This document shows positions 17,333 to 32,627 of a stretch of 35,140 nt of DNA, in pieces. Each line of letters begins with the position of its first letter. Position 1 is the stretch's first letter. The stretch lies in NCBI RefSeq assembly GCF_003334405.1, contig NZ_QOWM01000027.1. One strand, written 5' to 3'. The DNA comes from Escherichia coli (GTDB lineage Bacteria; Pseudomonadota; Gammaproteobacteria; Enterobacterales; Enterobacteriaceae). The translations under genes were made by a program, and so were the position numbers. The notes beneath the pieces were generated by a model. It had not been told where the DNA came from. It saw nothing but the letters and a program-made list of their open reading frames with translations, and searched no databases.

Positions 17333-17848
17333 CCGCTGACACAGGTCTGCGGCTGGAATTGCCTGATGCGCTACGCTTATCAGGCCTACGAGTTCAGTGC
17401 TCTACGTAGGCCGGATAAGGCGTTCACGCCGCATCCGGCATAAACTACAGCTGGCAGACAGCCGCTGCGAAGGCATTTTTGCACATGGCGTTGGAGGAAT
17501 GCGCGGTTGTTGGCGGGAATGAATCACGGTAGCCGCTGACACAGATCAGCGGCTGGAATTGCCTGATGCGCTACGCTTATCAGGCCTACGAGTTCAGTGC
17601 TCTACGTAGGCCGGATAAGGCGTTCACGCCGCATCCGGCATAAACTACAGCTGGCAGACAGCCGCTGCGAAGGCATTTTTGCACATGGCGTTGGAGGAAT
17701 GCGCGGTTGTTGGCGGGAATGAATCACGGTAGCCGCTGACACAGATCAGCGGCTGGAATTGCCTGATGCGCTACGCTTATCAGGCCTACGAGTTCAGTGC
17801 TCTACGTAGGCCGGATAAGGCGTTCACGCCGCATCCGGCATAAACTAA
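17249..17848. repeat. Three tandem 200-bp repeat units, each = last ~84 bp of cynR + a small hairpin + a REP pair
   Basis: ctggcagaca at 17251, 17451, 17651 and gaatcacggtagccgctgac at 17321, 17521, 17721 (period exactly 200). Units 2 and 3 are identical; unit 1 (the functional cynR 3' end) differs at ~7 positions. Confidence 0.9.
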
Positions 17849-25257: not shown

Positions 25258-25536
25258 TGTCGGATGCGACGCTATGCGTCTTATCCGACCTACAGTTCAG
25301 TTCACCCCGTAGGCCTGATAAGTCGCGTCAGCGGCGCATCAGGCATCGGTTGTCGGATGCGACGCTATGCGTCTTATCCGACCTACAGTTCAGTGCACCC
25401 CGTAGGCCTGATAAGTCACGTCAGCGGCGCATCAGGCATCGGTTGTCGGATGCGACGCCATCCGTCTTATCCGACCTACAGTTCAGTGCACCTCGTAGGC
25501 CTGATAAGTCGCGTCAGCGACGCATCAGGCATCGGC
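25258..25536. repeat. REP/BIME array: three tandem 93-bp units in the prpC-prpB spacer
   Basis: tgtcggatgcgacgc at 25258, 25351, 25444; each unit carries two REP palindromes (ggatgcgacgctatgcgtcttatccgacctac / gtaggcctgataagtcgcgtcagcggcgcatcaggc); units differ at a few positions. Confidence 0.9.
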
Positions 25537-28797: not shown

Positions 28798-29469
28798 ATG
28801 ATGCAGTTAGTTCACTTATTTATGGATGAAATCACTATGGATCCTTTGCATGCCGTTTACCTGACCGTAGGACTGTTCGTGATTACTTTTTTTAATCCGG
28901 GAGCCAATCTCTTTGTGGTAGTACAAACCAGCCTGGCTTCCGGTCGACGCGCAGGGGTGCTGACCGGGCTGGGCGTGGCGCTGGGCGATGCATTTTATTC
29001 CGGGTTGGGTTTGTTTGGTCTTGCAACGCTAATTACGCAGTGTGAGGAGATTTTTTCGCTTATCAGAATCGTCGGCGGCGCTTATCTCTTATGGTTTGCG
29101 TGGTGCAGCATGCGCCGCCAGTCAACACCGCAAATGAGCACACTACAACAACCGATTAGCGCCCCCTGGTATGTCTTTTTTCGCCGCGGATTAATTACCG
29201 ATCTCTCTAACCCGCAAACCGTTTTATTTTTTATCAGTATTTTCTCAGTAACATTAAATGCCGAAACACCAACATGGGCACGTTTAATGGCCTGGGCGGG
29301 GATTGTGCTCGCATCAATTATCTGGCGAGTTTTTCTTAGTCAGGCGTTTTCTTTGCCCGCTGTGCGTCGTGCTTATGGGCGTATGCAACGCGTTGCCAGT
29401 CGGGTTATTGGTGCAATTATTGGTGTATTCGCGCTACGCCTGATTTACGAAGGGGTGACGCAGCGGTGA
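28798..29469 (+). CDS. yahN: LysE/RhtB-family amino-acid exporter homologue
   Basis: 223-aa hydrophobic ORF MMQLVHLFMDEITMDPLHAVYLTVGLFVITFFNPGANLFVVVQTSLASGRRAG... Confidence 0.85.
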   Translation: MMQLVHLFMDEITMDPLHAVYLTVGLFVITFFNPGANLFVVVQTSLASGRRAGVLTGLGVALGDAFYSGLGLFGLATLITQCEEIFSLIRIVGGAYLLWFAWCSMRRQSTPQMSTLQQPISAPWYVFFRRGLITDLSNPQTVLFFISIFSVTLNAETPTWARLMAWAGIVLASIIWRVFLSQAFSLPAVRRAYGRMQRVASRVIGAIIGVFALRLIYEGVTQR

Positions 29470-29485
29470 GCAGATAATTTACTCT

Positions 29486-29731
29486 CTACGTAATCAACCT
29501 GATTTGCCGAATCACGGCCATCGGCGATGATAGCCCCCGTAATGCGTGGTCCTTATTTCCGATAAGTTTACTTGAGTCTTTAGCTTCCCATTTCAGCCCA
29601 CTCTCCCCTGTGTGGGCTTTTTTCATTGGTCTGCCCCATCCTGAATAGCCAAACAATGGCAATGTTCCACTTTGCAGGGATGATAATAAGGGGATCTGAT
29701 TCAGAAGAGTTTTGAAAAGTTGGACCGCCAT
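29486..29731 (-). CDS. yahM: Small protein of unknown function
   Basis: 81-aa ORF from ATG 29731 (MAVQLFKTLLNQIPLLSSLQSGTLPLFGYSGWGRPMKKAHTG...); the ORF-track entry is 10 codons longer. Coding status is uncertain: a + strand terminator hairpin lies inside it. Confidence 0.5.
   Translation of the reverse strand: MAVQLFKTLLNQIPLLSSLQSGTLPLFGYSGWGRPMKKAHTGESGLKWEAKDSSKLIGNKDHALRGLSSPMAVIRQIRLIT
29595..29623 (+). terminator. Rho-independent terminator candidate (likely for yahN)
   Basis: agcccac-tctcccctgt-gtgggct followed by TTTTTT: GC-rich 6-7-bp stem plus T-run; ~125 bp downstream of the yahN stop. Confidence 0.55.
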
Positions 29732-30143
29732 CGAGGCCTCGAACCCCGTACCATACAACAATCCTGGTTGTCGTCTGCTCTTCCTGATGAGCTAATGGCG
29801 GTTTTTGATATGAGCCTTACAGCATATTTTCTGTCAGGCTTGAGTGCGATGCGTAAGATACAGAAAAGACCCCACACAAACATGATGGAATTATGATTTT
29901 TTTCATATGAATGTCAACCAACACATTCACAAAACATCTGCATGAGATCATTTTTTATACACCGCATGGCTGCGAAACCACTACTGGTGCTTTTTTAAGC
30001 GAAGTGTCGCCGATCACAACAAAATATCGGCGAAAAAAGAGATGGAATGCCAGTTGGCATACAGATATACAGATGAAATGATTACCTGCATTGCGATTCA
30101 CTCTCAGGTGGAATAACAACTTGCAGGTGGAACCCTTTCTGAA

Positions 30144-30959
30144 CTAAAGAGTGTAGCGGATTTTAACGTGCTTATTTACAGGATAATATCTGTCACCTAA
30201 TTCCTGCACTCTATTAGATATCCATTCATTTAATCGCGCATCATCTCTGTATGTTTTTACGTCCAGAACAGAGAGCAATAACATCACCAGTGATTCAGGA
30301 AAAACAGGGTAGATATTTTTTAAGTGTAATAATAATCCATGCGCAAGCGCCTGCTTAATGGGCGCGTCTGTCTCCGGAATAGACGACATTTCGCGAAGCC
30401 ATTTTTCCACATGCATACACTCTTTCCCTTTAGGGAAAATTCTCAGCAAAGGCATATGGTATTCAAGAAGAATACATTTGCAATCTGTTCGCACTGAATC
30501 GATAAACTGCACTAATTTCTTAAGCCCGGTAAAGCGTCCAGCCTGCACGTTTGCTTTAATATCAAGAAACGCATCATCCTGGTCATATACCCAAACTGTC
30601 CCTTTTTGATTTTCAAGTATGTGAAAAACAAACTTAACCGGGTGATCAGGGTAATCCATCCAGTCATAAAATCCAGGGAAATCATTAAACTGCACATTTA
30701 TGGTGAGTGCGTTATCGTCTGACCACTCACAGTCTCGTACGGCAGCCATGAGATGAATGAGTTTGTCGTCATCGACTAAATCATCACGACAATCATAAGG
30801 ATAATCATAATATTGTTTAATCAAAACCTTGAATATATCGACACAGGAAACCAGGGAGCTTTTGATATCCTCTGGTAACTGATTGTTTTTAACCGTATTA
30901 AGTATGCTTTGTTGCGTATATGGCATCAAATTATTGTGCGGAGCTTTTAATGATATCAT
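30144..30959 (-). CDS. yahL: Protein of unknown function
   Basis: 271-aa ORF MISLKAPHNNLMPYTQQSILNTVKNNQLPEDIKSSLVSCVDIFKVLIKQYYDYPYDCRDD...; AT-rich coding region; no recognisable catalytic motif. Confidence 0.8.
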   Translation of the reverse strand: MISLKAPHNNLMPYTQQSILNTVKNNQLPEDIKSSLVSCVDIFKVLIKQYYDYPYDCRDDLVDDDKLIHLMAAVRDCEWSDDNALTINVQFNDFPGFYDWMDYPDHPVKFVFHILENQKGTVWVYDQDDAFLDIKANVQAGRFTGLKKLVQFIDSVRTDCKCILLEYHMPLLRIFPKGKECMHVEKWLREMSSIPETDAPIKQALAHGLLLHLKNIYPVFPESLVMLLLSVLDVKTYRDDARLNEWISNRVQELGDRYYPVNKHVKIRYTL

Positions 30960-31126
30960 CGCGATCTCTCTTAAATAAAAATAAACGTCGCAGATAATAA
31001 AGCTCTGATTAAACCAGGCACTATCAGAAATCGCTCATAACTAACGTGTGAAGTATTGTGTACTGGAGGGCGTTAATTTAACAATTTAAATTTACGTTAT
31101 AGGTTTTACTGCTACTTTGATATTAT

Positions 31127-31164
31127 TTCGCTCTCCTTAACTAAAAAGTTAAGTGGAGAGCGAA
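31127..31164. other. Strong imperfect inverted repeat (hairpin) between yahK 3' end and yahL 5' end
   Basis: ttcgctctccttaact-aaaaa-gttaagtggagagcgaa: 10-bp perfect stem plus a further 5 bp; flanks are not clearly U-rich on either strand. Confidence 0.45.
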
Positions 31165-31201
31165 GTTAATATGTTAAACCACAGGGTATTTATTAATTTT
31201 T

Positions 31202-32251
31202 TCAGTCTGTTAGTGTGCGATTATCGATAACAAAACGATATTTCACATCACCGCGCAGCATTCGCTCATAGGCTTCATTAATTTGATCGGCCCGAATCAT
31301 CTCTATATCAGCCACGATGCCATGTTCGGCGCAAAAATCGAGCATCTCCTGAGTTTCTGGAATGCCGCCAATCATAGAACCGGCTATCGCACGGCGTTTC
31401 ATGATCAGGTTGAAAACTTCCGGCGATTTATGCGGTGTCGCAGGCGCACCAACCAGCGTCATGGTGCCATCACGCTTCAGCAAGGTGGTAAAATCGTCGA
31501 GATTATGTGGCGCAGCTACTGTATTCAAAATGAAATCGAAACTCTTCAGATGAGCCGCCATCTCATCGGCATTGCGTGAGTTAACAACTTCATCGGCCCC
31601 CAGGGCTTTTGCCGCTTCGCGTTTTGCCTCAGAAGTGGTAAATGCCACCACATGTGCCCCCATCGCGTGGGCCAGCTTAATCCCCATATGTCCCAGACCG
31701 CCGATGCCGACCACGCCCACTTTTTTACCCGGCCCGGCCTGCCAGTGACGTAGCGGCGAATACGTGGTGATCCCTGCACACAACAAAGGAGCCACCGCCG
31801 CCAGCTGCTCTTGCGGGTGACGAATACGCAGAACATATCGCTCATGAACGACGATCTGTTGTGAGTAGCCGCCCAGAGTATGGCCCGGTTCGTCCGGCGT
31901 CGGCGAGTTATAGGTGCCGGTCATGTGATCACAGTAGTTTTCCAACCCGTCTTCACACTCTTCGCAATGTTTACAACTGTCGACAATGCAGCCGACACCG
32001 ACCAGATCGCCCGGCGCATATTTTTCTACCTGATCACCAACGGCTACCACACGCCCCACAATTTCATGACCCGGCACGCAGGGGTAAACCGTCCCCGCCC
32101 ACTCGGAACGGACCTGGTGGAGATCGGAATGGCAAACGCCACAGTAAGCGATTTCGATTTTGACATCATTCGGTCCCGGTTCACGCCGGGTGATATCCAT
32201 CGGTTCAAGTGGTTGTTTAGCGGAATATGCACCAACAGCTTTGATCTTCAT
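31202..32251 (-). CDS. yahK: NADPH-dependent aldehyde reductase (Zn-dependent alcohol dehydrogenase family)
   Basis: 349-aa ORF MKIKAVGAYSAKQPLEPMDITRREPGPNDVKIEIAYCGVCHSDLHQVRSEWAGTVYPCVPGHEIVGRVVAVG... with zinc-ADH GHE and CxxCxxC motifs. Confidence 0.9.
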   Translation of the reverse strand: MKIKAVGAYSAKQPLEPMDITRREPGPNDVKIEIAYCGVCHSDLHQVRSEWAGTVYPCVPGHEIVGRVVAVGDQVEKYAPGDLVGVGCIVDSCKHCEECEDGLENYCDHMTGTYNSPTPDEPGHTLGGYSQQIVVHERYVLRIRHPQEQLAAVAPLLCAGITTYSPLRHWQAGPGKKVGVVGIGGLGHMGIKLAHAMGAHVVAFTTSEAKREAAKALGADEVVNSRNADEMAAHLKSFDFILNTVAAPHNLDDFTTLLKRDGTMTLVGAPATPHKSPEVFNLIMKRRAIAGSMIGGIPETQEMLDFCAEHGIVADIEMIRADQINEAYERMLRGDVKYRFVIDNRTLTD

Positions 32252-32627
32252 TGTGTTTACTCCTGATTAGCTATGTGTATTTGGCAACGCCTGATATGTC
32301 ATCGCGGCAAAACGCGTCCATTGAATATAGCCAATATTTAAACCACCCGATCCAGCCCCAACATGCCGCGAGCCTGAATGAAACAGAGCAGCAACGTTCC
32401 CCATAAGGCGAGCGCCTGTAAGTGTGATATTTGCTATCTGTAAAAGACTAAAATCGGCAAAACTGATGATCTTTTCACGTAGACAAATAGTTATCTACAC
32501 AACGTCAATAAGGGCATATTCCTCAAAGATAATGTCCATTTCTGCCGACACACTCATATTCAGATTGCCCCACTCCCTGGGGCTTAAATCTCTTACTATT
32601 CACCGTTGCAGGCGTTTCAAATGCGCA

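Follow-up and report, generated by a model that had tools for sequence, protein, structure and literature searches.

The hairpin described here lies in the spacer between yahK and yahL, within a window of 35,140 nt (the whole stretch of Escherichia coli DNA that was analyzed), which is K-12-like and runs reverse-complemented relative to MG1655. Both genes are encoded on the minus strand, with yahL the next gene downstream of yahK. The yahK product is a much-used aldehyde reductase, and the A+T-rich yahL serves as a marker for E. coli. The stem begins 38 nt past the yahK stop codon and 167 nt ahead of the yahL start; the yahK and yahL open reading frame coordinates thus agree with an earlier note on this DNA, which had placed the structure 38 bp past the yahK stop and upstream of yahL. 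The site is intergenic and lies at a G+C boundary, G+C around the hairpin is only ~33%, and RefSeq carries no annotation at the hairpin. Together with yahM, yahL forms a block specific to E. coli/Shigella (PMC11057252). The features of the region are as follows, with positions counted in the window.

31202 to 32251, minus strand: yahK coding sequence (NADPH-dependent aldehyde reductase), its mRNA very probably ended by the hairpin; from the open reading frame and annotation.
31122 to 31201, minus strand: 3' untranslated region of yahK, 78 to 80 nt, very probably terminated by the hairpin; from the stop codon (31202 to 31204) and the mapped 3' ends.
31127 to 31164, minus strand: core hairpin; fold of -20.4 kcal/mol, z = -5.9.
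31120 to 31172, minus strand: full palindrome including an outer A/U helix; 66-nt fold of -22.9 kcal/mol.
31120 to 31128, minus strand: cluster of mapped RNA 3' ends; Term-seq ends of Adams et al. at MG1655 344013 and 344011, plus the TRS peak at 344007 to 344015.
31036 to 31110, minus strand: patch with C in excess of G, a candidate Rho loading region; from composition, with the peak of a published Rho region (31086) inside it.
30144 to 30959, minus strand: yahL coding sequence, next gene downstream on the same strand; from the open reading frame and annotation.

In the yahK sense (minus strand), the hairpin at 31127 to 31164 consists of a 10-bp perfect stem, a 2-nt bulge, a 6-bp inner helix, and a 4-nt loop. 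Both by reading the sequence and with a repeat finder, the outer arms TTCGCTCTCC (31127 to 31136) and GGAGAGCGAA (31155 to 31164) are 100% complementary, and the inner arms pair TTAACT (31137 to 31142) with AGTTAA (31147 to 31152). The bulge is GT at 31153 to 31154 on the plus strand, or AC on the minus strand, and the loop is AAAA on the plus strand and UUUU in the yahK transcript, so that the order across the site, as read in the window sequence, is GATATTAT TTCGCTCTCC TTAACT AAAA AGTTAA GT GGAGAGCGAA GTTAATATG. The dyad continues outward, with ATATTA (31120 to 31125) facing TAATAT (31167 to 31172), for a total palindrome of ~53 nt, and when 66 nt of context are folded (-22.9 kcal/mol) the outer A/U helix is formed (UAUUAA/AUAAUA in RNA). 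The earlier note had described an unusually strong hairpin with a 10-bp perfect stem, extended after a 2-nt bulge by 5 bp and closed by a loop of 5 to 7 nt. The strength, the perfect stem, and the bulge are all recovered by the repeat finder and by folding, while the minimum-energy fold gives 6 bp for the inner helix and 4 nt for the loop.

Folding energies, which the same note had named as a check, are low on both strands. The 38-mer in the yahK sense folds at -20.4 kcal/mol (z = -5.9; mean of 200 shuffles, -5.7) and the plus-strand RNA at -20.0 kcal/mol (z = -6.7), with none of the 200 shuffles folding as well as the hairpin. Chance alone would produce the arm pattern 0.01 times per window. 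Among all 44-nt windows on both strands of the 35-kb window, the hairpin falls in the top 0.26% by energy, a rank that it shares with REP elements and with coding hairpins rich in G+C. Some of the most stable hairpins of the window are REP-type palindromes, with GCCGGATGCGGCGTGAACGCCTTATCCGGCCTAC or a related sequence, at 77 to 200, 17405 to 17448, 17605 to 17648, and 25307 to 25536; two of them, at 17405 and 17605, are identical copies 200 nt apart. An Rfam 15 scan of 30000 to 32400 at E ≤ 10 returned only a chance-level hit to a plant microRNA model (E = 4.2, 23.9 bits versus a gathering threshold of 73).

The tail of the hairpin carries no U-tract. U occupies three of the first eight positions past the stem on the yahK-sense strand and four of eight on the other strand, in line with the earlier observation that neither strand has a convincing poly-U tail. 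In the yahK sense, the stem is followed by AUAAUAUC and preceded by CAUAUUAAC, which lacks an A-tract. The nine bases after the G-C core, AAAUAAUAU, are every one A or U. A consensus terminator scan of 30000 to 32400, with a threshold of at least 5 U in 8 nt, called no terminator.

Published RNA 3'-end maps place transcript ends just past the base of this stem. In supplementary files 1 and 3 of Adams et al. (2021, PMC7815308), Term-seq gives a 3' end at 344013 (+) for LB at an optical density (OD) of 2.0 and, for M63 glucose, another at 344011 (+). We converted these coordinates as window = 375135 - MG1655 coordinate, anchored on the yahL start (344176 = window 30959), and the conversion was verified by the 61-nt sequences that Adams et al. 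printed, which end in GGAGAGCGAAATAAT and GGAGAGCGAAATA. The two ends correspond to window positions 31122, 5 nt past the last stem base, and 31124, 3 nt past it; measured from the last G-C pair, they sit 5 to 7 nt beyond. The TRS analysis of 2023 (PMC10687069, Supplementary Data 2), a different caller run on previously published data, lists a terminus at 344007 to 344015 that is significant in three replicates, is designated "Primary yahK," and has its dominant position at 344012 (window 31123). The absence of transcript ends, which the earlier note would have held against the site, is therefore not what the published maps contain: ends are present, 3 to 5 nt past the stem.

Adams et al. labeled both ends "orphan / upstream ORF yahL," at -163/-165 (PMC7815308). 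That label is purely positional: any end qualifies if over 50 nt separate it from the preceding gene and it lies at most 200 nt upstream of an ORF. A consensus promoter scan found no promoter-like site between the yahK stop and the hairpin. We consider it very probable that the yahK mRNA has this hairpin as its 3'-end structure. It belongs to yahK and not to yahL because it stays with yahK in ~1,070 genomes that lack yahL (see below). RNase III processing was set aside as a source of the ends, which lie outside the core stem and are not staggered within it.

A region of Rho sensitivity has been called past the hairpin. A bicyclomycin-sensitive Rho termination region has its best position at 344049 (+) (Adams et al., supplementary file 2, PMC7815308), which is window position 31086, 36 to 38 nt beyond the mapped 3' ends. 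Reads upstream/downstream were 32/24 without bicyclomycin and 83/225 with it, and the region scored 3.61 with P = 1.8e-5 against a cutoff of 1e-4, from few reads counted in 800-nt windows (PMC7815308). The call was made in LB at an OD of 0.5, where Term-seq gave no 3' end at the hairpin. The extra downstream reads with bicyclomycin could stem from promoters within the A+T-rich yahL-yahM block rather than from yahK read-through. The RNA at 31110 to 31036, 20 to 90 nt past the hairpin, has a C/G ratio of 1.6 to 2.4 in 60-nt windows, a short patch in a region that is mostly A/U.

The same spacer contains a second, A+T-rich palindrome, CGTTAATTTAA-CAAT-TTAAATTTACG, at 31071 to 31096 (31 to 56 nt past the hairpin), whose 11-nt arms are 91% complementary and which folds as RNA at only -4.5 kcal/mol. 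The peak of the published Rho region (31086) falls within it. A TGTGA half-site lies at 31047 to 31051. Inside yahL, genomic SELEX peaks have been recorded for the RpoH, RpoF, and RpoE holoenzymes (MG1655 version-2 coordinate 343660; intensities of ≤27; PMC5493296), and CRP SELEX lists yahL as a predicted CRP target, position not stated (PMC3105977).

These properties resemble those of a described class of E. coli mRNA ends. Dar and Sorek (2018, PMC6061677) reported that 143 of 144 Rho-dependent E. coli termini directly follow stable stem-loops. The stem, loop, and energy of those structures match what is seen in intrinsic terminators; U is reduced in the tail, the A-tract upstream is missing, and a mild excess of C over G comes next. 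In pnp and rnb mutants, tails past the stem-loops accumulate (PMC6061677). The yahK hairpin likewise is stable, stands directly upstream of a precise steady-state 3' end, and has neither a U-rich tail nor an upstream A-tract. The short C-over-G patch and the low-count Rho-sensitive region past it may be further points of likeness. It differs in that its Rho signal comes from LB at an OD of 0.5, whereas its ends come from LB at an OD of 2.0 and from M63, and in that trimming is here only inferred. With canonical intrinsic terminators it shares a G+C-containing hairpin soon after the stop codon and 3' ends a few nucleotides past the stem; unlike them, it has no U-tract (3/8) or A-tract, is not called by the scan, and has a Rho-sensitive region nearby. 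As an extragenic palindrome that could block 3'-to-5' exonucleases, it is also comparable to REP/BIME stabilizers of mRNA 3' ends, whose role as a 3' exonuclease block is summarized by Dar and Sorek (PMC6061677), but it is single copy and its sequence is unlike the REP copies at 17405 to 17448 and 17605 to 17648. We conclude that the hairpin is probably an ordinary, unannotated example of a known stem-loop class.

Of 5,426 complete E. coli genomes, 5,092 contain the 69-nt hairpin region, the median being one site in each. The K-12 form occurs in ~3,950 genomes and a bulge-free form in ~1,100. The natural variants, with the energy of the core, are as follows.

K-12 type (the window and contigs L001, L088, and L092): 2-nt bulge; -20.4 kcal/mol.
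B2 type (L002, strain 1450): perfect 16-bp stem, free of the bulge; -25.8 kcal/mol.
THO-015 (L085): a base pair more than in its closest type; -26.7 kcal/mol.
A1 (L084): C-A mismatch relative to its closest type; -16.6 kcal/mol.
Metagenome contig L091: 2 × 2 internal loop relative to its closest type; -18.7 kcal/mol.

None of the four variants that differ from the K-12 type has a compensatory change. When the K-12 and B2 types are compared, 0 substitutions and 1 indel fall in the 38-nt hairpin, and ~11 substitutions and 2 indels in the 161 nt downstream, a difference too small to prove selection. The palindrome, whose conservation in other strains the earlier note had named as a check, is widespread (5,092 of 5,426 genomes) but conserved no more strongly than the flanking DNA. 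Strain variants weaken or strengthen the stem without compensation, so the comparative data do not discriminate between the readings considered below. Outside the species, this palindrome was not found downstream of yahK homologues (mostly beta- and gammaproteobacterial) among the matches listed, nor was the yahK-yahL arrangement found outside E. coli among the matches listed. The closest YahK homologues among the matches listed (a protein at 91%, Enterobacter sp. at 88%, and Salmonella bongori at 86%) stand in other gene contexts and are followed by unrelated sequence.

Within E. coli, the ~1,070 B2-like genomes without yahL still carry the hairpin, in its perfect form. In such genomes (L002, 2601 to 3000; also L085 and L091), the sequence becomes homologous to K-12 again shortly before the yahL start codon; strain 1450 has a frameshift in yahM. 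Two strains carry IS1 at this locus. In strain BDSF8-3 (L086, ~1510 to 2300), the element sits inside the hairpin, right after TTCGCTCTCCT, and the DNA from yahK to near yahV/betT is deleted; in strain VG888-46E9 (L003, 3027 to 3830), it sits in the 5' end of yahL, and yahK-yahE is deleted.

Several further observations concern the neighboring genes. A tRNA-like sequence at 29721 to 29801 (minus strand) overlaps the yahM start codon at 29731. ARAGORN designates it tRNA-Ser(gga). Its acceptor stem is 7 bp long (CCGCCAT/ATGGCGG), CCA is encoded, the T-loop reads TTCGAGG, and the minimum-energy fold, at -29 kcal/mol, resembles a cloverleaf. An Rfam scan of 29400 to 30200 that included the tRNA model (E ≤ 10) gave no tRNA match, and RefSeq has no annotation there. 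The sequence is conserved in yahL-less strains, related pieces number 1 to 9 per E. coli genome, and a Term-seq 3' end at 345390 (window 29745; Adams et al., PMC7815308) lies inside it. Possible identities are a pseudo-tRNA and a scar left by the integration of an island. On the other side of yahK, an E. coli-like contig (L088, 1582 to 2229) has a 215-amino-acid ORF between yahJ and yahK, where K-12 (window ~32338 to 32412) has kept no more than a pseudogene remnant of 75 nt, under the annotation "hypothetical protein, incomplete." In contig L092, ABC-transporter permeases replace yahJ upstream of yahK.

We weighed several explanations of the hairpin. The Rho-sensitive region and the missing U-tract favor a stability element or exonuclease barrier over a classical Rho-independent terminator. 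Both of these functions had been offered in the earlier note, as an "RNA-stability element" and a "terminator with a poor tail." Each is compatible with the data; the former is the one that gains from the Rho-sensitive region and the absent U-tract, and the latter is less favored in its classical form. A weak, noncanonical intrinsic terminator is a possible, though unlikely, explanation, in which a strong hairpin and the all-A/U stretch AAAUAAUAU, with its weak RNA-DNA hybrid, would release some polymerases at the mapped positions, possibly on both strands. The strength of the hairpin (-20.4 kcal/mol), the nine consecutive A/U after the G-C core, the position of the ends (3 to 5 nt past the full stem and 5 to 7 nt past the last G-C pair), and the recurrence of these ends in two growth conditions and a second analysis are all consistent with such release. 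Set against this are the U content (3 in 8 nt versus the 5 required by the scan, which came back empty), the absent upstream A-tract, and the Rho-sensitive region called just downstream, and a true U-rich case looks different: the yahK homologue of Enterobacter sp. BIGb0383 is followed by a -17.8 kcal/mol hairpin and then UUUAUUUAUU. That the hairpin is an autonomous terminator needing no U-tract, acting through a 16- to 22-bp stem and an all-A/U hybrid on both strands, is more doubtful still; if true, it would make the site a bidirectional insulator where the core gene yahK borders on yahL-yahM, a block that is A+T-rich and specific to E. coli.

The remaining explanations tie the site to yahL or to DNA-level functions. 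In one, the hairpin would act as a leader or attenuator of yahL and the 3' ends would be premature termination products of a yahL-directed transcript, as the listing of these ends among 3' ends upstream of ORFs (Adams et al., supplementary file 3) might suggest. We think this improbable: the label is positional, no promoter-like site lies from the yahK stop to the hairpin, TRS attributes the end to yahK, and the hairpin is kept, even more perfect, in lineages without yahL. The near-perfect dyad, which is perfect over 36 bp in B2-type strains, and its location upstream of yahL would also suit a DNA palindrome, either a site for a dimeric regulator (for example, a yahL operator) or a cruciform-forming site. 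However, arms of 16 bp with a 4-nt spacer far exceed the usual length of operator half-sites, the dyad of the K-12 type is thrown out of register by a 2-nt insertion, which is tolerated, and an RNA hairpin already accounts for RNA ends at the stem base. No binding data were found for 31120 to 31172, the sigma-factor SELEX peak being inside yahL and the CRP SELEX result having no position. A DNA-level role is accordingly very improbable, and the protein-binding palindrome proposed in the earlier note finds no support, the arms and spacer fitting an RNA hairpin better. Least probable of all is that the site is a relic or member of some mobile or repetitive element, for instance a REP-like unit, the end of a MITE, or a site of recombination. 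An intergenic palindrome at a G+C boundary, with IS1 inside it in one strain, might point that way, but the sequence has a median of 1 place per genome across 5,092 genomes, the window holds no second copy, and it is unlike the REP sequences of the same window. There were no phage matches, the plasmid matches are F-prime plasmids or mislabeled chromosomes with the same locus, and the IS1 insertion occurs in one strain only, where a deletion adjoins it. This idea was dropped on the single copy in window and genomes and the lack of a phage match.

The reading we prefer, with a probability of about 0.6, is that the hairpin is an exonuclease-blocking stem-loop that defines the 3' end of yahK by way of Rho termination and subsequent trimming. 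To the demonstrated parts (the structure, the RNA ends, and the missing U-tract), this route would add the following steps. RNA polymerase would mostly read through the hairpin, and Rho would load on the unstructured, C-over-G RNA just past it and stop transcription diffusely, in the yahK-yahL spacer or early in yahL. PNPase and RNase II would then trim the tail in the 3'-to-5' direction until blocked by the hairpin, which would thereby fix a precise 3' end and shield the yahK mRNA from decay. Hairpin and Rho together would prevent transcription of yahK from running on into yahL-yahM, the A+T-rich block specific to E. coli.

The RNA end itself is already present in two published tables; what yahK gains is a defined 3' end and a 3' untranslated region of 78 to 80 nt. 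These details may be of use to those who engineer yahK and to users of yahL as an E. coli marker, and the natural variants, which span -16.6 to -26.7 kcal/mol, offer a ready series for relating stem strength to mRNA stability. Otherwise the hairpin matters little beyond annotation: it would be one more well-documented case of the stem-loops that, without a U-tract, cap Rho-terminated mRNAs.
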